Source of the DNA: Candidatus Accumulibacter vicinus
Lineage (GTDB): Bacteria > Pseudomonadota > Gammaproteobacteria > Burkholderiales > Rhodocyclaceae
Assembly (NCBI GenBank): GCA_002425405.1
Contig: DIME01000188.1
Span: 6,310-70,309, forward strand
Length of the DNA: 64,000 bases
Direction of reading: 5' to 3'
Position 1 is the stretch's first letter. Each line of letters opens with the position of its first letter. Positions 44,063 through 58,082 of the stretch are shown here, one piece after another. The position numbers and the translations under genes were made by a program. The notes under the pieces are model-generated. The model made no database searches, was not told the DNA's origin, and worked only from the letters and a program-made list of their open reading frames with translations.

Positions 44063-46015
44063 TCACCTTTTCTGCGGACCCTTGCCGATCCAGTCCAGGA
44101 CCTGTGCCACCGCTGAGTCGATGGTGTGGTCCGTGGTGTCGAGTAGCTCGGCGTCCGCACCCTGCTGCATCGGAGCGACGCTACGTTGGCTATCCCGTTC
44201 GTCGCGCTCGCGCAGATCCAGCAAGAGGTCTTCAATACTAGCAGCCATTCCTTTTTCGATCAACTGCTTATGCCGGCGCATGGCGCGCATCTCGACGCTT
44301 GCAGTGAGAAATACCTTGGTCATCGCATCCGGAAAAACGACCGACCCCATGTCGCGCCCGTCGGCAACGAGTCCGGGTGACCGGCGAAAAGCCCGCTGCC
44401 GGAACAGCAGGGCAGCGCGTACGGCAGGCAGCGCAGCCACTCGCGAAGCACCGACAGAGATCTCCTCGCTACGGATGGCGTCGGAAACTTCCTCGCCAGC
44501 CAGAAGGATTGCATGGTCGCCAAACTCGACGTCAAGACCGGCAGCAATCGCTGCGACAGCGTCTTCATCGTCCCAGGCCGTTCCAGCACGCCGTGCGGCC
44601 AGGGCGGTCAAGCGATAGAGAGCGCCGGAATCGAGGTAGTGCCAGCCCAGCGCCTGCGCGACGCGGGTGGCGATGGTGCCTTTGCCTGAAGCCGAGGTGC
44701 CGTCAATGGCGATCACCGGCACCGCCTGGCCGACCTCGGCGAAGCGTGCGAAATAGTCCGGAAAGGTCTTGGCCACCGTCTGCGGGTCATTGATCCGCAG
44801 TGGCGTTCCCAGTGCCGCCAGCGAGCAGGCCATGGCCATCCGGTGGTCATCATAGGTGTCGATCGCCACCGCGTGCAGACCGCCAACTGGCGGATCAATG
44901 CGGAGGTAGTCCGCGCCCTCTTCGACGCTTGCACCGAGCTTGCGCAGCTCGGTTGCCATCGCGGCGATGCGGTCGGTTTCCTTGACTCGCCAGCTGGCAA
45001 TATGGCGCAAGGTGGTCGGCCCGTCGGCAAACAAGGCCGTGGTGGCCAGCGTCATCGCCGCATCGGGAATGTGATTGCAATCGAGGTCGATACCCCGCAG
45101 CCTGCCGGCCAACGGCGCCGCCGCCTCGATCCAGTGGGCCCCTGCACTGATCTGTGCGCCCATCGCGGAGAGGGCATCGGCAAAGCGGACATCCCCCTGG
45201 ATCGAATCCGGGCCAATCCCCTCGACACGCAACGGCCCACCGCCGATCGCGCCGAGCGCGAGGAAGTAGGACGCCGACGAGGCATCGCCTTCGACCTGGA
45301 CGAGCCCTGGCGAACGATAGGCGCTGCTCGCAGGCACGGTAAAGCGCCGCCAGCCGTCGCGTCGCACCTCGACGCCAAAGCGCGCCATGCTCGCCAGCGT
45401 GATGTCGATGTAGGGTCTGGAAATCAGCTCGCCGACCACTTCCACCGTCGTTTCGACCCCGCGCAGCGGCAAGGCCATCAACAGACCGGTGAGAAACTGG
45501 CTGGACACGTCGCCACGGACCTGCACCACATCATTCGGGCAGGGCCTCGGCGGATGGATCAGCAGGGGCGGAAAGCCCTCGACACCCAGGTAGCTGATCT
45601 CGGCGCCGAGCTGGCGCAAGGCATCGACCAGATCGCCAATCGGTCGTTCGTGCATCCGCGGCACGCCGCTCAGGCGGTAGTCACCCCTGGCGAGCGCCAG
45701 GACTGCAGTCAGCGGCCGGAAAGCCGTGCCGGCGTTGCCGAGAAAAAGGTCGGCCGCACGGACCGGGAAATCTCCTGCCACACCCGTGATACAAAGCGTC
45801 TTGCCCTCCCCCGGCGCGACGCCAACGCCGAGTACCCGCAGCGCTGCGAGCATGCGCGCGGTGTCATCGGAGAGCAGCAGGTCACCAAGCTCGGTCCTGC
45901 CCGTGGCCAGCGCTGCCAGCAGCAGCAGCCGGTTGGAGAGGCTCTTCGAACCGGGCAGGTGTACCGTACCGCGCGCCGCGCACAACTGCGGCAGATCGAG
46001 ATGGTCGATGCTCAC
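44063..46015 (-). CDS. aroA: Bifunctional EPSP synthase / cytidylate kinase
   Basis: [38 protein letters not shown], then in frame [12 protein letters not shown]...DSGALYR...DGRDMG (Cmk); GTG start overlaps the tyrA stop. Confidence 0.93.
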
Positions 46016-46899
46016 TTGTTCGCCTGACCTGCCGCCCACTCGCGACGAGCGTTCCTGGCGATGTCGAAGGTCGCTTCGAGGCTGGCACCGTCGCCACGCT
46101 GCAGCGCCTCCCGCAATTCGTCGAGTTCTTCCCGGTAGCGGTCGAGTTCGTCGAGCAAAGCGGTGCGATTGGCCAGACAGATATCGCGCCACATCTCCGG
46201 GTGGCTGGCAGCAATGCGCGTGAAGTCGCGAAAACCGCTGGCGGCAAAGCCGAACAGCAACTCCCGGTTGTCGCGCCGGGTCAGCTCATGCACCAGTGCA
46301 AAGGACAAGAGGTGCGGCAGATGGCTGACGGCAGCGAAAATCCGATCATGCTCGGCCGCCGTCAGTTCCCTGACCAGGCCGCCGCAGCACGCCCATGCCG
46401 AACGTACGCGCGCGATGTCCTCGGGACGGTTTTCCGGCAGTGGTGTCAGGACGACCTGCTTGTGACGATAGAGATCGGCGCGCGCGGCCAGCGCACCGCT
46501 ATTTTCGGCACCGGCAATGGGGTGCGCGGGGACGAATTGACCGAGCCGGGCGGCAAAATGGACGCGCGCTGCGGCAATCACGTTTCCCTTGGTACTGCCC
46601 GCGTCGGTAACCAGCGTCTGGCGCCCCAGGCAGGGGGCAATGCGGGCCATGATCTCGGCGGTCTTGCCGACCGGCGTCGCGATCAGTACCAAGTCGGCAT
46701 TGGAAACCTCCTGCCCGACATTGAATCCGGCACGGTCCACGATACCCAGCTCCAGCGCCTGCGTCAGCGAGCCGATCCGACGCCCGAAACCGACGATCTC
46801 TGCGGCCTCTCCGGCAGCCTTGAGTGCCAGCGCGAAGGATCCCCCGATCAGACCGACGCCAAAGACAACGACCTTGCCGAACAGCGGCGCGCTGCTCAC
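46012..46899 (-). CDS. tyrA: Prephenate/arogenate dehydrogenase
   Basis: [45 protein letters not shown]. Confidence 0.92.
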
Positions 46900-48044: not shown

Positions 48045-49136
48045 CTAGTAGACCGCGACCGGGTATGAACCCAGCAGCTTCAGATAAGGCGCACGCCGAG
48101 CCAGTTCGGTGAGTGCGCTACGCACTGCCACATCGTCGCGGTGGCCCTCGACATCGACGAAAAAGACATACGCCCACAGCGTATGACGTGCTGGACGTGA
48201 CTCCAGCCGGGTCAGCGAAACACCGGCATCGGAAAACGGGGCCAGCAGCTTGCTGAGCGCGCCGGTCTGGTTGTGCGCCGACATGATCAGCGAGGTCTTG
48301 TCACGCCCCGATGGCCCGGCGTCGTGGCGACCGAGAACGACGAAGCGGGTGGTATTGTTCGGTTCATCCTCGATGTTGCTGGCCAGTTCAGGCAGTCGAT
48401 AACGCTCGGCAGCCGCCTGACCGGCGATTGCCGCCGCCCCGGCTTCGGTCGCGGCGAGTTGCGCGGCCTGCGCGTTGCTGCCGACCGGGATGCGCTGCAC
48501 ATTCGGCAGCGAGCGATTCAGCCACTCGTGACATTGCGCCAGCGACTGCGCGTGTGAATAGACCTTCACCACTTCACCCAGAGAGCGCTCGTTCGACAGC
48601 AGATGCTGGTGAATGCGCAGCACCACTTCGCCGCAGACCTTGAGCGGCGTCGTCAGCAGCAGGTCGAGGGTGCGTCCGACGGCACCCTCGGTCGAGTTTT
48701 CGATTGGCACCACAGCGTAGTCGGCATGACAGGATTCGACTTCGCGAAAGACATCGTCGATCGAAATCTGGGGCATCGGGCGTGCGGCATGACCAAAATG
48801 CTTGATCGCTGCGCTTTCCGAGAAGGTGCCGAGCGGTCCCAGGAAGGCGATGCCCAGCGGCTGTTCGAGCGACAGGCAGGCCGACATCACTTCCCGGAAA
48901 AACCAGGTCACGCTCTCGTTCGACAGCGGCCCTGGGTTGATCTCCTGAATCCGCTGCAGCACCTGCGCTTCACGCTCGGGCCGATAAATGAAGCCGGCCT
49001 CACCATGGCGCGCCTTGATCTCCCCGACCTGCTGCGCATAGCGGGCACGCCGGTTCAACAAGTCCAGCAGTTGCCTGTCAAGGCCGTCGATCTGCTGACG
49101 AACGACCGCCAGTTCGCTCTGCAGGTCGCCGCTCAC
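48045..49136 (-). CDS. pheA: Chorismate mutase / prephenate dehydratase (P-protein)
   Basis: RQQIDGLD..LL.LLNRR, LGPLGTFSE, PIENSTEG, NNTTRF, LESRP; GTG start at 49136. Confidence 0.95.
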   Translation of the reverse strand: MSGDLQSELAVVRQQIDGLDRQLLDLLNRRARYAQQVGEIKARHGEAGFIYRPEREAQVLQRIQEINPGPLSNESVTWFFREVMSACLSLEQPLGIAFLGPLGTFSESAAIKHFGHAARPMPQISIDDVFREVESCHADYAVVPIENSTEGAVGRTLDLLLTTPLKVCGEVVLRIHQHLLSNERSLGEVVKVYSHAQSLAQCHEWLNRSLPNVQRIPVGSNAQAAQLAATEAGAAAIAGQAAAERYRLPELASNIEDEPNNTTRFVVLGRHDAGPSGRDKTSLIMSAHNQTGALSKLLAPFSDAGVSLTRLESRPARHTLWAYVFFVDVEGHRDDVAVRSALTELARRAPYLKLLGSYPVAVY

Positions 49137-49205
49137 CAAGCGTATCCCGTGTGCAGTCGCAGCCGGTCGGTCAGGCAAGGCAGGCGGTCGAACATGCCGA
49201 CCACC

Positions 49206-51827
49206 CTAGCCCTGCTCCGGATCGGTCACGGGCAGCTCGACCGCGGCAGTGTCCTCGTCATCCGCCGGGGGTTCAACCCCTTCGACGTCGTCTTCGCTTT
49301 CGACGACCTTTTCCAGACCGGCGAGCTTCTCGCCGGCGTCGAGCGCGATCAGCGTCACTCCCTGGGTCGCGCGTCCAAGTTCGCGAATCTCGCGCACGCG
49401 CGTGCGGATCAACACGCCACCGGTGGTGATCAGCATGATCTCGTCTTCGTCACGCACCAGGCGGGCAGCGACGACCTTGCCGTTGCGTTCGCTGGCGGCA
49501 ATTGCCTTGACCCCCTGCGTGCCGCGACCGGAATGGCGGAAATCGGCGAGAACCGTGCGTTTGCCAAAACCGTTCTCGGTGGCCACCAGCACCGTCTGCT
49601 GATCGTTGTCGGCAACCAGCAGCGACAACACCTGTTGCTGGTCCGCAAGCCGCATTCCCCGCACGCCGCGTGCCGTACGCCCCATCGGGCGAACCTCCTC
49701 CTCGTCGAACCACACCGCTTTGCCGACGTCGGAAACCAGCACCACATCCTGCAGACCATTGGTGATCTCGGCGCCGATCAGGACGTCATCCTCGTCGAGG
49801 GCGACGGCGATGATGCCGGCCTTGCGCGGGTTGGAGAAATCCGACAGCGGCGTCTTCTTGACCGTGCCGTTGGCGGTGCACATGAAGATGTAGCGATCGT
49901 CGGCGAACTCCTTGACCGGCAGGATGGCACTGATTTTCTCGCCCTCCTCGAAGGGAAACAGGTTGACGATCGGCTTGCCGCGGCTACTGCGCGTCCCTTG
50001 CGGCACCTCATAGACTTTCAGCCAGTAGACGCGCCCCCGGTTGGTGAAGCAGAGAATGAAATCGTGCGTATTGGCCACAAACAGATGGTCGACGAAATCG
50101 TCCGCCTTCATCGCTGCCGCCTGCTTGCCCCGTCCACCCCGCCGCTGTGCGCGATAGTCGGCGAGTGGCTGCGCCTTGATGTAACCGGTATGCGAAAGCG
50201 TCACCACCATGTCGGCCGGGGTGATGAAATCCTCGATGCCGAGATCCTGGGTGTGGGTGACGATCTCCGAACGGCGCTTGTCGGAGAACTGGGCACGGAT
50301 GCCGGTCAATTCGTCGACGATCATCTCGGTGATGCGCTCGGGTCGCGCCAGGATGTCCATCAGGTCGGCAATGCGTTCGAGCAGTTCGCCGTAATCGGCA
50401 ACGATCTTGTCGCGTTCGAGGCCGGTCAAGCGCTGCAGGCGCAGTTCGAGGATCGCCTGCGCCTGGGCTTCCGAGAGCAGGTAGCCGTTCTCCGCCAGGC
50501 CGAATTCGCGACCCAGTCCTTCCGGGCGGGTCGCATCGAGCGCCGCCCGCCGCAGCATCTCGGCCACCGTCGGCGAGGTCCAGTGCCTGGCCATCAGCCC
50601 GCGGCGCGCATCGGCCGGCGTCGGCGCAGCCTTGATCAGGGCAATGATCTCGTCGACATTGTCGAGCGCCACCGCCAGGCCTTCCTGGATGTGCGCCCGC
50701 TCGCGTGCCTTGCGCAATTCGAAAACGGTTCGCCGGGTCAACACCTCGCGCCGGTGCCAGAGAAAACATTCGAGCATCTGTTTGAGGTTGAGCAGGCGCG
50801 GCTGCCCATCGACCAGGGCGACCATGTTCATGCCGAAGGTGTCCTGCAGTTGCGTCTGCTTGTACAGGCAGTTGAGCACCACTTCAGTCACTTCGCCACG
50901 CTTCAGCTCGATCACCACGCGCATGCCCGATTTGTCGGACTCGTCGCGCAGATCGGAAATGCCTTCGATCTTCTTCTCGTTGACCAGCTCGCCGAGCCTT
51001 TCGAGCAGCGTTCGCTTGTTCACCTGGTAAGGTAGTTCGTCGATGATGATCGCCTGACGATTGTTGCCCTTCTCCATGTCCTCGAAGTGCACCTTGCCGC
51101 GCATGATGACGCGTCCTCGCCCGGTGCGATAGCCCTCGCGGACACCGGCAAGGCCGTAGATGATGCCGGCGGTCGGAAAGTCGGGCGCCGGCAGCAGATC
51201 GATCAGCTCGTCGACGCCGATCTCGGCATTGTCAAGCAACGCGAGACAGGCATCGATCACTTCGCCGAGGTTGTGCGGCGGAATGTTGGTCGCCATGCCG
51301 ACCGCAATCCCCGACGAGCCGTTGATCAGCAGGTTCGGAATGCGTGCAGGCATGACCAGCGGCTCGTCCTCCGAACCGTCGTAGTTGGGTCCGAAATCGA
51401 CGGTTTCCTTGTCGATGTCGGCAAGCAATTCGTGCCCGATACGCGCCATGCGCACTTCGGTGTAACGCATCGCGGCAGCATTGTCGCCGTCGACCGAACC
51501 GAAGTTGCCCTGCCCGTCGACCAGCATGTAGCGCAGCGAGAAATCCTGCGCCATGCGCACGATGGTGTCGTAGACCGCCGTGTCGCCATGCGGATGGTAC
51601 TTGCCGATGACATCGCCGACGATCCGCGCCGATTTCTTGTACGGCTTGTTCCAGTCATTCGACAACTCATGCATGGCATAAAGCACACGCCGATGCACCG
51701 GCTTGAGGCCATCACGTGCGTCGGGCAGCGCGCGCCCGACAATCACGCTCATTGCATAATCGAGATACGATCGGCGCATCTCGTCTTCGAGGCTGATCGG
51801 GAGGGTTTCTTTGGCGAAAGCTTCCAT
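49206..51827 (-). CDS. gyrA: DNA gyrase subunit A
   Basis: [30 protein letters not shown], GyrA-box QRRGGRG, C-terminal propeller repeats. Confidence 0.99.
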
Positions 51828-51895: not shown

Positions 51896-52315
51896 CGCTC
51901 CCGATTTCCCCGGACCCGGCAGGAGAGGGTATCGGGTGTGAATAATTGACCGCAGTTGATCAGGAACATATACTCTCGCGGACAGTTCTGGGTTTCCTTT
52001 CTTCTCATATGCTCGGGATGGTCTGGAGGGCCGCTGGCAGTGCCGCCTCGTTGGTCTGACGACTTCCGGAACATTCCTGGTGGGTGGTCGATGCTCCCTG
52101 GCGGCGCGAACGCCGCCACTCGCCGACCGACGTGTGTACCCTCGCAGGTTGACGGGCGGGTTTGAACTCGCGTAATGACGAAGTATCAACTTCGCTGCGC
52201 CTGCCACGACCCCTCTCTTGATTAACACGTTTTTAGCAAGCCGTTGGCATCGCAAGGGCACCGTGCCATGGCACGGGAGGTAATCGCCAATGCTGTGGAT
52301 AGTTTAGAGGTAGAA

Positions 52316-54850
52316 ATGCTCGCAAGCACCATTCCTTCACCACCCAACAGCCTCGACAAGCCAGGCACGATCAGGGTTTTCGATTTTGCCCTGGTCGGTA
52401 TCCAATTGGTGTTGCTTCTGCTTCTCTTGCGCCAATTCCAGATCGAATCCGCGGCCTTCCTGCGGCTCGCCGCCCTTGCCTTCGGCGGCTTTGCCATTCA
52501 TGCCTGGCTGCCTCTGCGCTACCGTTTGCCATTCTTTCTACTCTTGAGTTTCGCGGGTATCGGGGTCGTCATGGGCTTCGAGAACGGCGCCTGGATGATC
52601 GGGATAGGGTTGCTCCTGATAGGCATCTGCCATATCCCGGTTTCCTTTACGTTGAGGGGCGCCTTGCTGCTGCTCGTGGGAGCGCTTCTGGCGGCACAAC
52701 GCGCAAAGCTCCTGCCGTTTCCCTGGTCGGAAGCAATCTGGCCGATTCTCGGCTCGATGTTCATGTTCCGGCTGATCGTGTACTTCTATGACCTGCGCCA
52801 CGAAAAGGTACCGGGGACGCCAGTCCAGGCTCTGGCCTATTTCTTCATGCTGCCAAATGCCTGTTTCCCCCTTTTCCCCGTGGTTGACTACAAGGCATTT
52901 CGCCGCAGCCATTTCGACGATGATGCCTACCGTGTCTATCAGGTCGGCATCGACTGGATGGTCCGCGGTGTCATCCATCTGATCCTGTATCGGGTGATCT
53001 ACTATTACTTCACGATGGCGCCCTCCGAGGTCAACACCCCGGCCGACCTGTTGAATTACCTCGTATCGAACTTCCTGCTCTACCTGCGCGTATCGGGCCT
53101 GTTTCACCTGATTATCGGCATGCTTTACCTGTTTGGTTTCCGTCTGTCGGAAACGCACAACCGCTACCTGCTGGCGACGAGCTTCACGGATTTCTGGCGG
53201 CGCATCAACATCTACTGGAAAGACTTCATGCAGAAGGTCTTCTATTACCCGGTGGTGTTCAAACTGAAAAAGCTGGGGGCGACAAAGGCGCTGGTGATCG
53301 CGACGCTCTATGTTTTCGTGATGACGTGGTTCCTGCACGCCTACCAATGGTTCTGGCTGCGTGGCACGCTGCTCTTCGTGCCACAGGACATCCTATTCTG
53401 GGCGATCCTGGGCGTTCTGGTGGTGCTCAATTCGCTCTACGAGATCAAGCATGGACGGTCGCGAAGCATCGCGGCGAAGAAGCGGACCCTGCGCGATGTC
53501 CTTCTTTCGATCGTGAAGACCTACGGCACCTTCTGGTTCATCTGTGTCCTCTGGTCTTTCTGGACGGCGGAAACCCTGGGCGACTGGTTCTCCTTATGGG
53601 GTGCCCTACACGGCGACTTCAGCTGGCAGGTGCTGGCCTGGCCAGCCGTCGTCCTGCTGGTGGTTGCCGTCGGCTCGATCCCCAAGGAGACCTTGCGCAA
53701 TATCAAGGTTTCGGCGCAGGAAGAAAGCGAGTGGATTCGCTCACGCATCGTCACTGTTGTCGCATTGATCGGACTGATTCTGATCAGTATCGAAGGGGTG
53801 GCCACCCGGATTAGCCCGAACATCGCGACGATCGTGCATTCACTACGTTCCGGACAGTTGAGCCGCCTTGATCAGGCCAAGCTGGAAAAGGGCTATTATG
53901 AAAACCTTCTGTCGGTGGATCGTTTCAACTCTCAGCTCTGGGAGGTCTATACCAAGAAACCCGCCAACTGGCTGGACGTCGACAATGCCAATCTGAAGCG
54001 TTTCAACGGCGGCTTTGCACAAACGGAACTGATCCCGTCTTTCGTTTCTCGCACCAAGTACGGTGATATCACCATCAATCGCTGGGGAATGCGGGATCGT
54101 GACTACGCGCTGGAACCCGCTGCCGGCGTCTTTCGTGCCGCTGTCCTCGGCGCATCCTCGGTGATGGGCTGGGGTGTGGGAGACGGTGAAACCTTCGAAG
54201 CGCTCGTCGAAGAGCGCCTGAATACCGAGCGACCGGTCGTTGGCATCGACCACTATGAATTCCTGAACTTCGGCGTTCCCGGTTATCAGCCGCTGCAGCA
54301 ACTCGTGGCCTTTGAGAAAGCCATGCAGTTTCGGCCGAATGCCGTGATCTACGTCGCGACCGGACGTGAGCTGTCGCGTGCTGCGGTCTACCTCGCCGAA
54401 GCGGTCAGGAAGCGGATCGATATCCCCTATGAGGAGTTGCGACAAATCGTTCAGCGCTCGGGGATCACGCCGGAGATGGAGGAAGCCGAGGCACTCAAGC
54501 GCCTGACGCCATACCGCAAGGAAATGCTGAATTTCGTCTACGGATCGATCGCGGCGCGCGCGCGCGCCAGCGGCACCCTCTCGATCCTGCTTTTTTTGCC
54601 ACAGGTTACTGATGGGTCATGGCGAGAGGAGACGGCCGATACCCTCGCGATCGCAGCGGGTGCGGGCTTCGTGATCATTGATCTGGACGACCTCTACAAG
54701 GGCCGCGACATCAACCAGTTGCGGCTTGCCGAGTGGGACGACCACCCGAACACGCAAGGCCATCGCCTGGTCGCAGAGCACCTGTACAAAGGACTTCTCG
54801 AGCGACGCGAGCAGGTGTTCAAGACCGACCGCATCCACCACGCACAGTAG
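52316..54850 (+). CDS. MBOAT O-acyltransferase fused to a C-terminal SGNH-like periplasmic domain
   Basis: Multiple TMs; SFTDFWRRINIYW and WFLHAY (MBOAT His); C-terminal VLGASS..G.GV, NFGVPGY, DDHPNTQGH (SGNH blocks); RBS GAGG before ATG 52316. Confidence 0.85.
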   Translation: MLASTIPSPPNSLDKPGTIRVFDFALVGIQLVLLLLLLRQFQIESAAFLRLAALAFGGFAIHAWLPLRYRLPFFLLLSFAGIGVVMGFENGAWMIGIGLLLIGICHIPVSFTLRGALLLLVGALLAAQRAKLLPFPWSEAIWPILGSMFMFRLIVYFYDLRHEKVPGTPVQALAYFFMLPNACFPLFPVVDYKAFRRSHFDDDAYRVYQVGIDWMVRGVIHLILYRVIYYYFTMAPSEVNTPADLLNYLVSNFLLYLRVSGLFHLIIGMLYLFGFRLSETHNRYLLATSFTDFWRRINIYWKDFMQKVFYYPVVFKLKKLGATKALVIATLYVFVMTWFLHAYQWFWLRGTLLFVPQDILFWAILGVLVVLNSLYEIKHGRSRSIAAKKRTLRDVLLSIVKTYGTFWFICVLWSFWTAETLGDWFSLWGALHGDFSWQVLAWPAVVLLVVAVGSIPKETLRNIKVSAQEESEWIRSRIVTVVALIGLILISIEGVATRISPNIATIVHSLRSGQLSRLDQAKLEKGYYENLLSVDRFNSQLWEVYTKKPANWLDVDNANLKRFNGGFAQTELIPSFVSRTKYGDITINRWGMRDRDYALEPAAGVFRAAVLGASSVMGWGVGDGETFEALVEERLNTERPVVGIDHYEFLNFGVPGYQPLQQLVAFEKAMQFRPNAVIYVATGRELSRAAVYLAEAVRKRIDIPYEELRQIVQRSGITPEMEEAEALKRLTPYRKEMLNFVYGSIAARARASGTLSILLFLPQVTDGSWREETADTLAIAAGAGFVIIDLDDLYKGRDINQLRLAEWDDHPNTQGHRLVAEHLYKGLLERREQVFKTDRIHHAQ

Positions 54851-54878
54851 TTTGACAAACCAAACCAACGGAGGTCAC

Positions 54879-55133
54879 ATGAATACAGAAGAACTGAAAC
54901 AGGCCATAAAGAATTACATCATCCAGGAGTTTCTGCCGGGCGAAAACCCCGATAACGTGACCGATGACCTCCCGCTGATCAGCAGCGGGATTCTGGACTC
55001 GATTGCGACGCTCAAGCTCGTGCTCTTCATCGAAGAGCGCTTCGGGATTACCCTCGAAGCGCACGAAACCGACAAGGAAAACATGGATACGCTTGCCCAG
55101 ATGGTCGCCACCATCGAGGCCAAGCAGAAGTGA
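54879..55133 (+). CDS. Acyl/peptidyl carrier protein
   Basis: 84-aa acidic protein with GILDSIATLKLVLFIEERFGI phosphopantetheine motif; RBS GGAGG. Confidence 0.92.
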   Translation: MNTEELKQAIKNYIIQEFLPGENPDNVTDDLPLISSGILDSIATLKLVLFIEERFGITLEAHETDKENMDTLAQMVATIEAKQK

Positions 55134-55137
55134 GTGA

Positions 55138-56706
55138 ATGATGAGCACTCGGGCATTGCACCAGGCGTTTCTTGCCGCCGCCGAGCATTTTCCGGAGCGC
55201 ATTGCCGTCGTCGAACCCGGCGAAGGAGAGATCAGCTATCGACAACTTGCCGATTTGTCGGGCCGCACGCGCGATCAACTGCGCGCACGTGGCATCGGTC
55301 GTGGTGACCGGGTTGGTCTGTACCTGCGCAAGTCAATCGATACCGTCGCCGCGATCTACGCCATCCTGCGCGCGGGCGCGGCCTATGTACCGGTTGATCC
55401 GGGCGCGCCGCCGGCTCGCAACGCGTACATCATGCACAACTGTGGGGTGAAGTTGGTGTTCAGCGAGAGCCGCGTCACAGAAAAGTTCTGTGCTGAACTT
55501 GAAGCCATCGGAGCAACACCGCAGGTGATCGCTCTCGACGACGTGGGTGCCGGACTGGCCCTGGGGCGGTGGCTCGAAACGCAATCGAGTGCACTCCCGT
55601 TTGCACAGGAGGCAGACATCAGCGCGAATGATGACGATCTTGCCTATATCCTGTACACATCGGGATCAACAGGGAAACCGAAGGGCGTGATGCTGTCGCA
55701 CAAGAATGCCGTCAGTTTTGTCGACTGGTGTTCCGAGGTCTTTGAACCTCGAGAGACGGACACTTTCTCCGCGCACGCACCGTTTCATTTTGACCTCTCG
55801 ATTCTTGATCTGCACGTTTCCTTGAAGCACGGTGCCACGCTCGTGCTGATCACGGAAGATGTCGGCAAGGATCCGATGCGTTTGGCAAAGATCATCGCAG
55901 AGCACAGGATTTCAATCTGGTACTCGGCACCATCGATTCTGGGCCTGCTTGCGCAGTTCGGAAACCTCGCCAACCTCGAGTTCCCGGATCTGCGCCACGT
56001 GTTGTTCGCCGGCGAGGTTTTCCCGGTCAAGCACCTGCGCATCCTCTGCGGTTTGTGGACGAAACCGCGATACTTCAACCTGTACGGCCCAACCGAAACG
56101 AATGTCTGCACCTTCCACGAGGTCATCACGCCGGTACCGGAGGATCGCTCGGTACCTTATCCGATCGGGAGGGTCTGCTCGCACCTGCTCGGAAAAGTGG
56201 TTGATGAGAACGGCACGACCGTCGAGCGGGGTGCGGAAGGCGAACTGTGTATCGCGGGCCTGGGGGTCATGCAGGGTTACTGGGGACTCCCCGAGCAGAC
56301 TGAGAATAGTTTCCTGGTCGATCCGCAAGGAACACGGTGGTACAAAACGGGCGACATTGTCGTCGAGGAATCCGATGGCTGCTACATCTACCGTGGGCGG
56401 CGCGATCGCATGGTCAAACGGCGCGGCTATCGCGTCGAACTCGGCGAGATCGAAGCCGGTCTGTACAAGCATGCGCAAGTGAAGGAAGCTGCGGTTGTCG
56501 CGGTGCCCGATGAGGAAGCGGGCGTCAGGATCGTCGCACACCTGAGCTGCAAGGCGCAGGCCGTCCCGTCGTTGATCGAGATGAAACGCTTCTGTGGCGA
56601 GAACCTGCCCTTGTACATGATCCCGGACCGTTTCGTCTGGCAGCAGTCGCTTCCCAAGACCTCCACTGACAAAATCGACTATCAGCGCCTGAAGGAGATG
56701 GCTTGA
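55138..56706 (+). CDS. Stand-alone amino-acid adenylation enzyme, predicted L-proline:carrier-protein ligase
   Basis: YILYTSGSTGKPKG, FHFDLS, NLYGPTE, YKTGD, GRRDRMVKRRGYRVELGEIE, PKTSTDKID; hand-extracted code DLLYLALVCK. Confidence 0.85.
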   Translation: MMSTRALHQAFLAAAEHFPERIAVVEPGEGEISYRQLADLSGRTRDQLRARGIGRGDRVGLYLRKSIDTVAAIYAILRAGAAYVPVDPGAPPARNAYIMHNCGVKLVFSESRVTEKFCAELEAIGATPQVIALDDVGAGLALGRWLETQSSALPFAQEADISANDDDLAYILYTSGSTGKPKGVMLSHKNAVSFVDWCSEVFEPRETDTFSAHAPFHFDLSILDLHVSLKHGATLVLITEDVGKDPMRLAKIIAEHRISIWYSAPSILGLLAQFGNLANLEFPDLRHVLFAGEVFPVKHLRILCGLWTKPRYFNLYGPTETNVCTFHEVITPVPEDRSVPYPIGRVCSHLLGKVVDENGTTVERGAEGELCIAGLGVMQGYWGLPEQTENSFLVDPQGTRWYKTGDIVVEESDGCYIYRGRRDRMVKRRGYRVELGEIEAGLYKHAQVKEAAVVAVPDEEAGVRIVAHLSCKAQAVPSLIEMKRFCGENLPLYMIPDRFVWQQSLPKTSTDKIDYQRLKEMA

Positions 56707-57854
56707 TGGATTTTTCTTTCTCGGAAGAGCAGCGATTGCTGCGAGACAACATCGTCAGATTCGCCAAGGGTACGCTGAACCAGAAAGTGATCGAGCGTGA
56801 TCACAATCATGAGTTCTCTCGGGATCTGTGGCGCAAATGCGGAGAGATCGGCATTCAGGGATTGCCTGTTCCGGAGCAGTACGGCGGTTCCAATGTCGAC
56901 CCGCTGACTTGCGCGATCGCCCTGGAGGCGCTTGGCTACGCCTGCCACGATGGCGGCCTGGTGTTCTCTCTGTCGGCGCATCTGCTGGCCTGCGTCGTGC
57001 CGATCTGGCGGCACGGGACCGACGCCCAGAAGCAACGTTATCTGCCGGGATTGTGTGACGGGACCTGGATCGGGTCGCATGCGATCACCGAGCCAGGCTC
57101 GGGTTCGGACACGTTTTCGATGCGCACCCGTGCCGAGAAGGTAAACGGGGGCTGGAAGATCAATGGAACCAAGACCTTTATCTCGAATGGTCCGGTTGCA
57201 GACGTGGCGATCATCTTCGCGATGACCGATCCTGGCAAGGGTTTCCACGGCGGGGTCAGCGGCTTCCTGGTGGACGCCGGGCAACAGGGACTGTCGACCG
57301 GCAAGCCGTTTGAAAAGATGGGCTTGCGCACATCTCCGATCGGCGAATTAGTCTTTCAGGACATGTTCGTTCCCGACGACGCGGTGCTTGGAAAAGTGGG
57401 GGCCGGAGCCGCCGTTTTCGGGACGGCCATGGATTGGGAACGTGCTCTGCTCGTCGCCGGGCATATCGGCGTGATGGAACGGCTGCTGGAGACGGCGGTC
57501 GGCTATGCGCGAACGCGCAACCAGTTCAATCAGAGCATCGGCAAGTTCCAGGCGGTCTCGCACAAGATCGCCGACATGAAGGTCCAGCTGGAAGCGGCGC
57601 GCCTGCTCGCCTATCGGGCTGCCTGGAAACTCGGCAACTCGCGTAGCGCTTCCCTCGATGCGTCCATCGGCAAGCTGTTTGTGAGCGAGTCGCTGCTGCA
57701 ATCCGCGCTCGACTGCGTGCAGTTGCACGGAGGCTACGGCTTCATGGTCGAGTACGAAGTCGAGCGTGTCTTGCGTGACGCCGTCGCGGGAACGATCTAC
57801 TCGGGAACCTCGGAGATGCAGCGAAACATCATCTCGCGCTGGCTGGGATTGTAG
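56706..57854 (+). CDS. Acyl-CoA dehydrogenase-family flavoprotein, L-prolyl-carrier-protein dehydrogenase-like
   Basis: ITEPGSGSD, NGTKTFISN, KMGLRTSP, MDWER, HGGYG, IYSGTSEMQR; TGATG overlap with the ligase stop. Confidence 0.85.
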   Translation: MDFSFSEEQRLLRDNIVRFAKGTLNQKVIERDHNHEFSRDLWRKCGEIGIQGLPVPEQYGGSNVDPLTCAIALEALGYACHDGGLVFSLSAHLLACVVPIWRHGTDAQKQRYLPGLCDGTWIGSHAITEPGSGSDTFSMRTRAEKVNGGWKINGTKTFISNGPVADVAIIFAMTDPGKGFHGGVSGFLVDAGQQGLSTGKPFEKMGLRTSPIGELVFQDMFVPDDAVLGKVGAGAAVFGTAMDWERALLVAGHIGVMERLLETAVGYARTRNQFNQSIGKFQAVSHKIADMKVQLEAARLLAYRAAWKLGNSRSASLDASIGKLFVSESLLQSALDCVQLHGGYGFMVEYEVERVLRDAVAGTIYSGTSEMQRNIISRWLGL

Positions 57855-58051
57855 ATGCCTGCGTATGCTTCGCGGAAGCTGAACGGCCATGCGCACGAAA
57901 TGGGGGGCAAGGAATGGCGGCCTGAAGGTCAACCCGAGGACGTCAAGGGGCATGACTTTGTCACTAGCGTGGCAGCGCCTGGCTGACGAACGGTCTAAAT
58001 CAGTGCTTCCCTACCCAAACATCATTGCCGGGCTCTGAAGCAAGCCATCCC

Positions 58052-58082
58052 AAAACCCGCCAGTCACACTGGCGGGTATTTT
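58052..58082. terminator. Bidirectional terminator-like hairpin between the acylation operon and msrA
   Basis: AAAA-CCCGCCAGT-CAC-ACTGGCGGGT-ATTTT. Confidence 0.75.

Follow-up and report, generated by a model that had tools for sequence, protein, structure and literature searches.

A four-gene operon of Candidatus Accumulibacter appears to specify a Dlt-like system of trans-envelope acylation, whose membrane component would be a single polypeptide made of an MBOAT-fold half and an SGNH-fold half. The operon lies in the window analysed here, a 64,000-nucleotide (nt) stretch of the Candidatus Accumulibacter vicinus contig DIME01000188.1, in which the fused gene occupies positions 52316..54850 (+ strand), an 844-codon open reading frame (ORF) that gives a protein of 844 amino acids (aa). 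We assign the overall pathway a probability of roughly 0.55. On the best reading, the group moved is pyrrole-2-carbonyl (or dehydroprolyl), and it is carried to an extracytoplasmic acceptor that is probably a glycan.

The proposed pathway would begin in the cytoplasm, where, judging from close homology, an adenylation enzyme would activate L-proline and load it onto an 84-aa carrier protein. A flavoenzyme resembling AnaB and PigA would, by the same kind of homology, oxidize the prolyl-S-carrier, most likely to pyrrole-2-carboxyl-S-carrier and alternatively, in a two-electron step, to the pyrroline. The fold, the invariant residues and the operon linkage suggest that the carrier protein would then dock from the cytoplasmic side onto the MBOAT domain, where His341, together with Asn298, would pass the acyl group to a hydroxyl on the periplasmic side. 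The first acceptor may be Tyr527 or Tyr528 of an internal GYYExL motif, in the role that the FXYXXF motif plays in DltX, PatA and AlgI. Finally, Ser614, with His810 and Asp808, would take the acyl group as an acyl-enzyme and hand it to a hydroxyl group on a polymer outside the cytoplasm, which is most likely a polysaccharide.

The donor side of this pathway is read from the three partners of the fusion gene. The 84-aa carrier protein (54879..55133, + strand) has its phosphopantetheine serine, Ser41, in an LDS motif (nt 54999-55001); it matches the Pfam PP-binding model at 23.1 bits, above the cut-off, and its sub-threshold NCBIfam matches include DltC. Its best NCBIfam match, 'ACP_for_OlsHI', was rejected as an identification, being below cut-off and belonging to a pathway that has a GH3-like enzyme and an alpha/beta hydrolase but no MBOAT. 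The stand-alone adenylation enzyme of 522 aa (55138..56706, + strand; TIGR01733, 369.7 bits) has PltF (6o6e, 350 bits) as its best single-domain solved relative, by far the best in the segment of the specificity pocket. The nine aligned code positions, D-L-L-Y-L-A-L-V-C, are identical in the two enzymes and agree with L(L/F)YLALVC, which has been published as the code of L-proline adenylation enzymes of the stand-alone kind (PMC3874040). This code recurs in 49 of the 59 fusion-linked adenylation enzymes of other genomes, the remainder being one position off, and the window enzyme scores under the cut-offs of the DltA equivalog models. Its predicted specificity is for L-proline, not D-alanine.

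The third partner (56703..57854, + strand) is a 383-aa enzyme of the acyl-coenzyme A (CoA) dehydrogenase family that uses flavin adenine dinucleotide and is related to the prolyl-carrier-protein dehydrogenases AnaB (4irn, 387 bits) and PigA (5zw0, 321 bits). A proline-type adenylation enzyme combined with an AnaB/PigA-like dehydrogenase implies that the tethered substrate is an oxidized prolyl thioester. How far the oxidation proceeds bears directly on the nature of the transferred group: AnaB is a two-electron enzyme that stops at the pyrroline, while PigA, RedW and PltE go on to pyrrole-2-carboxyl. Several points weigh against the pyrrole. The best match in the Protein Data Bank (PDB) is the pyrroline-forming AnaB, pyrroline and pyrrole formers are not separable by sequence, the scores against the PigA (439.5 bits, cut-off 500) and RedW (421.2 bits, cut-off 650) models both fall under the equivalog cut-offs, and there is no halogenase in the window. 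The system might thus move a two-electron pyrroline-carboxyl (dehydroprolyl) group or even a prolyl group, forming an amino-acyl-type ester nearer to D-alanylation. We regard this as rather unlikely, since PigA and RedW are nonetheless the two best NCBIfam models and since PltA-class halogenases are embedded in the cassette at about ten loci.

These halogenases were found in the wider family. Gene linkage was followed in 82 related loci, 47 of which have at least 5 kb on both sides, and about ten related loci carry one or two flavin halogenases resembling PltA, Mpy16 and Bmp2 inside or beside the cassette, as counted by phmmer plus the WxWxIP motif. The hosts are mostly Chloroflexota; Pirellulales, Binatia and an unclassified bacterium contribute one locus each. 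The genes lie at L051 (7953-9293), L060 (10806-12182), L064 (10626-12095), L066 (5873-7282 and 14190-15596) and L057 (13949-15352 and 17029-18471), and also in loci L071, L074, L078 and L082. Most of them have both GxGxxG and WxWxIP; the latter is absent from three closely related copies, led by L066 5873-7282, and from one truncated copy, the L057 17029-18471 copy also being among those that lack it. The L066 5873-7282 product was the one compared with the PDB, and its best matches are halogenases of carrier-protein-bound substrates, namely PltA, Mpy16, Bmp2, CmlS and CndH. Single-linkage cluster 4 of the neighbouring genes, labelled as halogenase, also contained unrelated proteins, such as an ABC ATPase in L012. 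PltA-class halogenases act on pyrrolyl-S-carrier proteins, so that in those lineages at least their presence in the cassette favours pyrrole as the product, and the group transferred there may be a halopyrrole-carbonyl.

The association of the fusion gene with the cassette is nearly constant. Carrier protein, adenylation enzyme and dehydrogenase are all encoded within 6.5 kb of the fusion gene in 40 of the 47 well-flanked loci, and at least the carrier-protein gene stands beside it in 46 of them. The order of the four genes varies, at least six arrangements being seen, and the loci come from Proteobacteria, Acidobacteriota, Chloroflexota, Gemmatimonadota, Planctomycetota and others. Outside this core set, even the most frequent gene family is present at no more than about 10 of the 82 loci, which indicates that the four genes form a self-contained module. 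That linkage, kept through reshuffled orders across phyla, is difficult to reconcile with the notion of an ordinary O-acetyltransferase of the AlgI/PatA type that uses acetyl-CoA, has merely become fused to its SGNH partner and has nothing to do with the proline cassette. Relatives are labelled DltB/AlgI by COG (JGI annotation) and most bacterial MBOAT/SGNH pairs do use acetyl-CoA (PMC12148441), but the carrier protein has its sub-threshold DltC matches and the fusion protein has no terminal FXYXXF motif, the C-terminal mark of the acetyl-CoA type; we consider an acetyl-CoA donor very improbable. The obligatory link to a cassette of the PltF/PltL/PltE type predicts instead a new acyl donor for envelope modification.

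The fusion protein itself had been described in an earlier note, made from the sequence alone, as a single-chain MBOAT plus SGNH protein. An AlphaFold2 model, built on a 139-sequence family alignment (mean predicted local distance difference test score, pLDDT, 92.9; predicted template modelling score 0.91), was compared with the PDB by Foldseek, with template modelling (TM) scores normalised to the target. The MBOAT-fold membrane domain comprises approximately aa 20-455 (52373..53680, + strand), the boundaries being taken from the list of helices in the model. The N-terminal 450 residues or so match DltB (8jem, 6bug) with E values of 4.6e-7 to 1.3e-6 and TM scores of 0.51-0.55, and HHAT (7q6z, 7urf, 7mhy) with TM scores of 0.54-0.59; LPCAT3 (7f3x), DGAT1 (9vjx) and ACAT2 (7n6r) are also matched. 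E values over all the MBOAT matches range from 4.6e-7 to about 1e-2, and the TM scores are 0.51-0.59 for DltB, HHAT and LPCAT3 and 0.35-0.47 for DGAT1 and ACAT2. With the SGNH-type matches of the C-terminal half described below, these DltB/HHAT-type matches mean that MBOAT and SGNH parts are combined here in one enzyme chain.

Sequence models miss this first half. Neither Pfam MBOAT model (PF03062 or PF13813) matches the window protein at E<=0.01, an alignment-wide Pfam scan gives no MBOAT match even at E<=1, and PF03062 is matched by just 1 of 57 relatives (E 7.2e-7). NCBIfam models gave nothing useful for the fusion protein, a single-sequence phmmer search of the PDB gave no match, and the profile of the 139-sequence family found no MBOAT chain there. 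The Pfam model of the other translocating domain, Acyl_transf_3 (AT3), does not match the window protein either. Thus the domain labels of the earlier note hold for both halves at the level of fold and fail for the MBOAT half at the level of Pfam, NCBIfam and PDB sequence searches; to judge from the model, this half is too divergent for current sequence models and fold comparison is needed to recognize it.

The motifs quoted in that note are all present where it placed them. Those of the MBOAT half are MLPNACFPLFPV at aa 178-189, FWRRINIYW at aa 293-301 and WFLHAY, which includes His341, at aa 338-343. Within the proline-rich loop, P180, N181, P188 and D191 are invariant or nearly so in the fusion family; MLPNACFPLFPV presumably departs from the 'FFPxLxAGPI' loop of AlgI and DltB. 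Conservation was read from a MAFFT alignment of 161 relatives, 34-96% identical to the window protein, to which the counts given below out of 161 refer. Residues P180, P188, R296, N298, H341, Q344, Y527, G612, S614 and H810 are the same in 161/161; Y528 is kept in 160, G526 and N651 in 158 each, D808 in 157, E529 in 154 and L531 in 146. Hence both the catalytic His and the catalytic Ser that had been pointed out are kept throughout.

The invariant MBOAT histidine, His341 (codon 53336..53338, + strand), lies within helix 322-349, and Asn298 (codon 53207..53209, + strand) lies 43 residues upstream, a spacing inside the 35-47 residues of known MBOATs. The active site of DltB contains Trp285, Trp288-His289 and Trp335-His336 (PMC11035591), for which the counterpart stretches here are W294-R-R-I297-N298 and L340-H341. 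By motif position (WRRIN against Trp285..Trp288-His289), Asn298 would correspond to DltB His289, ACAT1 N421 and DGAT1 N378. It had been noticed that Asn replaces the His of DltB's WH while the catalytic His is retained, and this is accurate. To call FWRRINIYW non-canonical was an overstatement: an Asn paired with the catalytic His is the norm in ACAT1 (N421/H460), DGAT1 (N378/H415) and PORCN (N301/H336), and the His found at that position in DltB (H289/H336) is restricted to DltB-type bacterial MBOATs (PMC11035591). The same note had supposed that a bulky aromatic acyl donor was responsible for the altered motifs. An aromatic donor is indeed what the PltF-type enzyme, the carrier protein, the prolyl dehydrogenase and, elsewhere, the halogenases point to; nothing in the analysis, though, ties the altered motifs to the bulk of such a donor.

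The topology was derived by applying the positive-inside rule to the loops between the helices of the model. Loop 317-321 has two K/R and no D/E, loop 379-391 five K/R and no D/E, and loop 454-469 three K/R (K457, R461, K464), with R475 and R477 at the start of the next helix; loops 350-355 and 418-436 have no K/R. By the rule, the three basic loops are cytoplasmic, which places residues 492 onward in the periplasm. Helix 322-349 would run from the cytoplasm outward, with His341 toward the outer leaflet and four further passes after it. In other MBOATs the catalytic His faces outward, deep in a membrane-embedded funnel (PMC11035591), and the predicted orientation of His341 agrees with this. 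The last transmembrane helix (aa 470-491; 53723..53788, + strand), assigned from the model helices and the same rule, would take the chain to the periplasmic side, so that both the GYYE linker and the SGNH domain are predicted to be periplasmic, as had been proposed for the latter.

The C-terminal domain (approximately aa 561-834; 53996..54817, + strand) has an SGNH fold preceded by beta-hairpins. Its Foldseek matches are CgnD (8a2n), LAE5 (5jd3), TesA (6lfc, 1jrl), Axe2 and PatB (7tlv, 7tjb), with TM scores of up to 0.75; PatB is a peptidoglycan O-acetyltransferase. In sequence, the Pfam model Lipase_GDSL_2 matches the window protein at E 1.1e-5, under the gathering score, and 48 of the 57 relatives, and the 139-sequence family profile finds weak SGNH chains in the PDB (e.g. 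9otv, E 6e-6). The three motifs first singled out are GASS at aa 612-615, NFGVPGY at aa 651-657 and DDHP at aa 808-811. The candidate block I nucleophile, in a G-x-S context, is Ser614 (codon 54155..54157, + strand), which starts helix 614-617 right after strand 605-611. Position 613 is A, S, P, G or T in 145/161, and the Asp of a GDS motif is not among its five commonest residues, in keeping with the earlier remark that GASS stands in place of GDS. Block II would be N651, after strand 646-651, followed by G, A or S at position 653, and Asp808-x-His810 (54737..54745, + strand), just before the last long helix (813-829), is the candidate acid/base pair of block V. Two departures from the canonical family weigh against this assignment: no conserved block III Asn was found in the SGNH domain of the 161-member alignment, and the acid and base are spaced D-x-H where the canonical spacing is D-x-x-H. 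At position 682, His is found in 87/161 and Thr, which the window protein has, in 26/161; at position 685, 142/161 have Glu or Asp. In two relatives, P0133 (1235 aa) and P0220 (1188 aa), the SGNH domain is followed in tandem by another SGNH-like domain with a G-x-S motif.

Most of the structural neighbours of this domain are esterases and thioesterases (TesA, LAE5, Axe2), and genes for the synthesis of an acceptor are not consistently linked to the cassette over the 82 loci. Accordingly, one may picture the SGNH domain as a hydrolase, which would export or release free pyrrole-2-carboxylate, or its halogenated form, to the periplasm, or would proof-read a mis-acylated intermediate. We find this improbable: to spend ATP and a membrane relay on freeing a small membrane-permeant acid would be uneconomical, the same fold serves PatB and other transferases, and 23 of the 82 loci lie within polysaccharide gene clusters. 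In these 23, at least one polysaccharide gene occurs in the flanks, the types being group 1 glycosyltransferase, Bac_transf priming transferase, polysaccharide deacetylase, AsnB-type amidotransferase, NDP-sugar epimerase and carbamoyltransferase. Two close relatives have the module next to exopolysaccharide (EPS) genes of the exosortase type (Wzz/GNVR, Poly_export and an exosortase-associated ligase/decarboxylase/hydrolase set). These neighbours suggest a glycan as the acceptor. A point on the other side is that in the window no polysaccharide gene lies near the operon; its flanks are housekeeping genes, so that a local clue to the acceptor is missing. In the close relative L001 (27-7775), the cassette adjoins a second, exosortase-A-associated carrier-protein system comprising a pyridoxal-phosphate-dependent decarboxylase, an AMP ligase, a carrier protein, two alpha/beta hydrolases and a tetratricopeptide repeat protein; this one EPS locus may be the target of two distinct acyl-modification modules.

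In known systems a Tyr relay works through DltX or through a C-terminal FXYXXF motif of the MBOAT, MBOAT and SGNH partners being separate proteins (PMC12148441), so that the background of the earlier note was correct on both counts; a relay through an acyl-Tyr has been demonstrated in DltX, PatA and OatA (PMC12148441). Here, the candidate relay tyrosines are Y527 and Y528 of GYYE (aa 526-529; 53891..53902, + strand), within KLEKGYYENLL (aa 522-532), predicted from the topology to be extracytoplasmic and to lie between the last transmembrane helix and the SGNH domain. The DltB-sized core is followed by extra transmembrane helices and then by three short helices, the last of which (517-529) ends in R-G-Y-Y-E-x-L, about 35 residues past the last transmembrane helix. 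GYYExL is present in 234 of 261 full-length relatives, with GYYEx[IV], GYYDxL and GYYQx[LM] as variants. Ahead of it, aa 456-520 have a mean identity to the query of merely 21%, which makes GYYExL an island of invariance. The earlier worry that GYYE might prove poorly conserved is thus dispelled, for both the tyrosines and their predicted location. A low-confidence, presumably flexible hinge comes after the motif: pLDDT drops below 50 at 531-534, and block means are 55-73 over 521-560.

No other shuttle is apparent. As had been observed, there is no DltX-like gene: no small single-transmembrane ORF ending in an FxYxxF-like motif was found anywhere in the window, and the intergenic distances of the operon (28 nt, 4 nt and then a 4-nt overlap between the four genes, all on the same strand) leave no room for one. 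The internal GYYExL is therefore the only candidate shuttle in the window. Another FxYxxI-like element of the protein, NFVYGSI in the SGNH domain (aa 740-745), was rejected: Y742 is kept in only 113/161, F740 is mostly replaced by Trp, and the segment is a helix of the domain core. The invariance of the motif, its presence on the correct side of the membrane, on a flexible tethered arm between the catalytic domains, and the lack of any other shuttle encoded in the window lead us to propose, at somewhat less than even odds, that Tyr527/528 are the acyl relay.

Some observations speak against such a relay. GYYExL shares with FXYXXF just the Tyr and the last hydrophobic position, and charged residues (Arg525 and Glu529) flank its tyrosines, whereas DltX has an aromatic motif, for which docking in an aromatic funnel is predicted (PMC11035591). 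Moreover, in 4 of the 82 related loci an FxYxxF microprotein of the DUF5989 family is encoded beside the cassette or a few kb upstream; the fusion proteins of these four loci still retain RGYYE. Instead of carrying the acyl group, GYYE could be a structural clamp between the domains or could bind the acceptor, Ser614 or the acceptor taking the acyl group straight from the MBOAT funnel while the donor stays the same. The invariant N588, R593, D594 and R607 nearby suggest a conserved interface, and the fusion could set the SGNH active site directly above the funnel, so that a shuttle would be unnecessary. We hold such a direct transfer to be unlikely. All the bacterial MBOAT/SGNH and AT3-SGNH systems that have been studied connect the two sites through a Tyr intermediate (PMC12148441), the MBOAT His is buried far down in the membrane funnel (PMC11035591), beyond the reach of the Ser of a globular domain, and GYY is the sole invariant Tyr pair outside the two catalytic domains.

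The DUF5989 microproteins (L033 3342-3512, L051 1516-1719, L057 703-933 and L081 5313-5588, all on the + strand) have about 50-60 aa with a single transmembrane segment, match the Pfam model with E values of 1e-17 to 8e-25 and end in PFIYTLF, an exact DltX-type FxYxxF. The gene lies directly 3' of a gene for a NodU/CmcH-type carbamoyltransferase, and in L051 and L081 the genes for the carrier protein, the adenylation enzyme and the fusion protein come straight after it. DUF5989 may serve as a shuttle for carbamoyl or acyl groups; no literature on it as a shuttle was found.

The fusion is not a peculiarity of Accumulibacter. More than 3377 homologous proteins were found at E<=1e-3 in a collection clustered at 90% identity, and a library clustered at 50% identity gave 7479 representatives at E<=1e-3 and 1053 at E<=1e-30. 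The best 150 matches are nearly all of 820-960 aa and aligned end to end. A scan of one genome per species showed at least 564 stretches encoding a relative, the hosts being Beta-, Gamma- and Alphaproteobacteria, Acidobacteriota, Chloroflexota, Gemmatimonadota, Planctomycetota, Verrucomicrobiota and others; a plasmid search returned one unannotated Microvirga megaplasmid, which was uninformative. Sequence comparison thus indicates a large family in which the fusion itself is conserved.

The start of the fusion gene is best placed at the ATG at 52316, which has a GAGG ribosome-binding site 5 nt upstream, the sole clear one among the candidate starts; the frame is open as far as an alternative TTG at 52244, which has no such site. 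In the 90%-identity cluster of this protein, public gene calls differ in the start and yield lengths of 728, 844 or 860 aa, and the RefSeq label is 'hypothetical protein'. A sigma-70-like promoter candidate, TTGACC-17-TATACT (51946..51974, + strand), has 10 of 12 consensus matches and is proposed from the consensus match alone, and a hairpin resembling an intrinsic terminator (58055..58077, + strand; 10-bp stem with seven GC pairs and a T-rich tail) would close the operon. Assembled contigs of activated-sludge metatranscriptomes cover 52022-53536 and 53507-58077. Those of run X1 start at 52022, downstream of the promoter candidate, and end exactly at 58077, at the terminator-like hairpin. As a caution, assembled RNA contigs may include some DNA, and they are therefore taken merely as support for one expressed transcription unit. 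The leader from the promoter-like site to the start codon (51975-52315) is unusually long, about 335 nt; RNA contigs start within it at 52022 and 52113, and an Rfam scan of it gave no match at E<=1.

In the window, the operon is flanked by gyrA (49206-51827, - strand) on one side and by msrA on the other. gyrA heads a housekeeping block, rpsA / aroA-cmk / tyrA / hisC / pheA, in which aroA-cmk (44066-46192, - strand; NF008816, 1063.7 bits) is a bifunctional fusion of 3-phosphoshikimate 1-carboxyvinyltransferase and cytidylate kinase. An 810-aa ORF antisense to gyrA (48603-51035, + strand) is almost certainly no gene, since the GC-rich strand opposite a conserved gene readily gives open frames.

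A natural MBOAT-SGNH fusion contrasts with the literature view of separate partners (PMC12148441; PMC12423673). SGNH fusions have been reported for AT3 domains only (PMC12148441), MBOATs have been described as being without additional domains (PMC12423673), and a review of the SGNH family does not list an MBOAT fusion (PMC9487903). Full-text searches of the literature found no description of such a fusion or of an MBOAT linked to a prolyl or pyrrolyl carrier-protein cassette. Taken singly, the components belong to known kinds. Their architecture, the chemistry of the donor and the putative internal Tyr motif are undescribed, and specialists of envelope acylation would find the fusion and the donor surprising. 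The family, with its more than 1000 clusters at 50% identity, has been missed by the Pfam MBOAT model and is unannotated in RefSeq. With the donor site, a putative Tyr relay and the acceptor site on one chain, the protein would be a convenient object for work on the structure and mechanism of trans-membrane acyl transfer. If the proposed pathway is true, pyrrolyl-S-carrier protein, a building block so far known only from secondary-metabolite pathways, would have an extracytoplasmic destination. One could go further and suppose a widespread, unrecognised esterification of surface or matrix polymers by pyrrole-2-carbonyl, halogenated in some phyla, made from L-proline on a carrier protein and carried across the inner membrane by a single-chain MBOAT-SGNH protein in which GYYExL replaces the FXYXXF shuttle; this is a speculative extension, to which we give distinctly less than an even chance. 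Candidatus Accumulibacter is a key phosphate-removing organism of wastewater plants, and the chemistry of its matrix is of practical interest.

Among known systems, the closest in logic is DltA-DltC-DltB-DltD-DltX, which D-alanylates the teichoic acids of Gram-positive bacteria. That system, too, combines a stand-alone adenylation enzyme that charges a small carrier protein, an MBOAT whose invariant His hands the acyl group outward and an extracytoplasmic SGNH protein whose Ser nucleophile finishes the transfer; DltB is the top structural match of the membrane half, and the DltA and DltC models also match the operon partners. The two systems differ in that MBOAT and SGNH form one polypeptide here and no DltX gene is present, that L-proline takes the place of D-alanine and an extra dehydrogenase modifies the tethered substrate, that Asn replaces DltB His289, and that the hosts are mostly diderm, environmental bacteria.

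PatA/PatB, AlgI/AlgJ/AlgX and WssH/WssI likewise pair an MBOAT with a periplasmic SGNH transferase, and PatB is among the structures that the C-terminal domain resembles. The PatA/AlgI-type MBOATs also extend past the DltB-like core, their Tyr motif lying outside the membrane after two transmembrane helices that are absent from DltB (PMC12148441). However, those partners are two distinct polypeptides that work with acetyl-CoA, without a carrier protein, and their Tyr is in a C-terminal FXYXXF hexapeptide, whereas GYYExL is internal and the chain continues into the SGNH domain. The layout of the present protein is that of the AT3-SGNH fusions OatA and OafA, in which a membrane translocating domain, a linker and an extracytoplasmic SGNH domain follow one another on one chain, with an acyl-Tyr in OatA (PMC12148441); the membrane domain of those proteins adopts another, unrelated fold, AT3/TmAT (PMC12423673), and their donor is acetyl-CoA, while the fold here is that of an MBOAT. 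Finally, the cytoplasmic genes resemble the cassettes PltF-PltL-PltE, PigI-PigG-PigA, RedM-RedO-RedW and AnaC-AnaD-AnaB in the proline adenylation code (identical to that of PltF), the small carrier protein, the AnaB/PigA-type dehydrogenase and, in related loci, the PltA-like halogenases. The product of those cassettes goes to a cytoplasmic polyketide synthase or non-ribosomal peptide synthetase, or to an acyltransferase, for a secondary metabolite. Here, in contrast, a membrane MBOAT-SGNH protein is the sole downstream partner that is conserved, implying that the group is delivered outside the cytoplasm.

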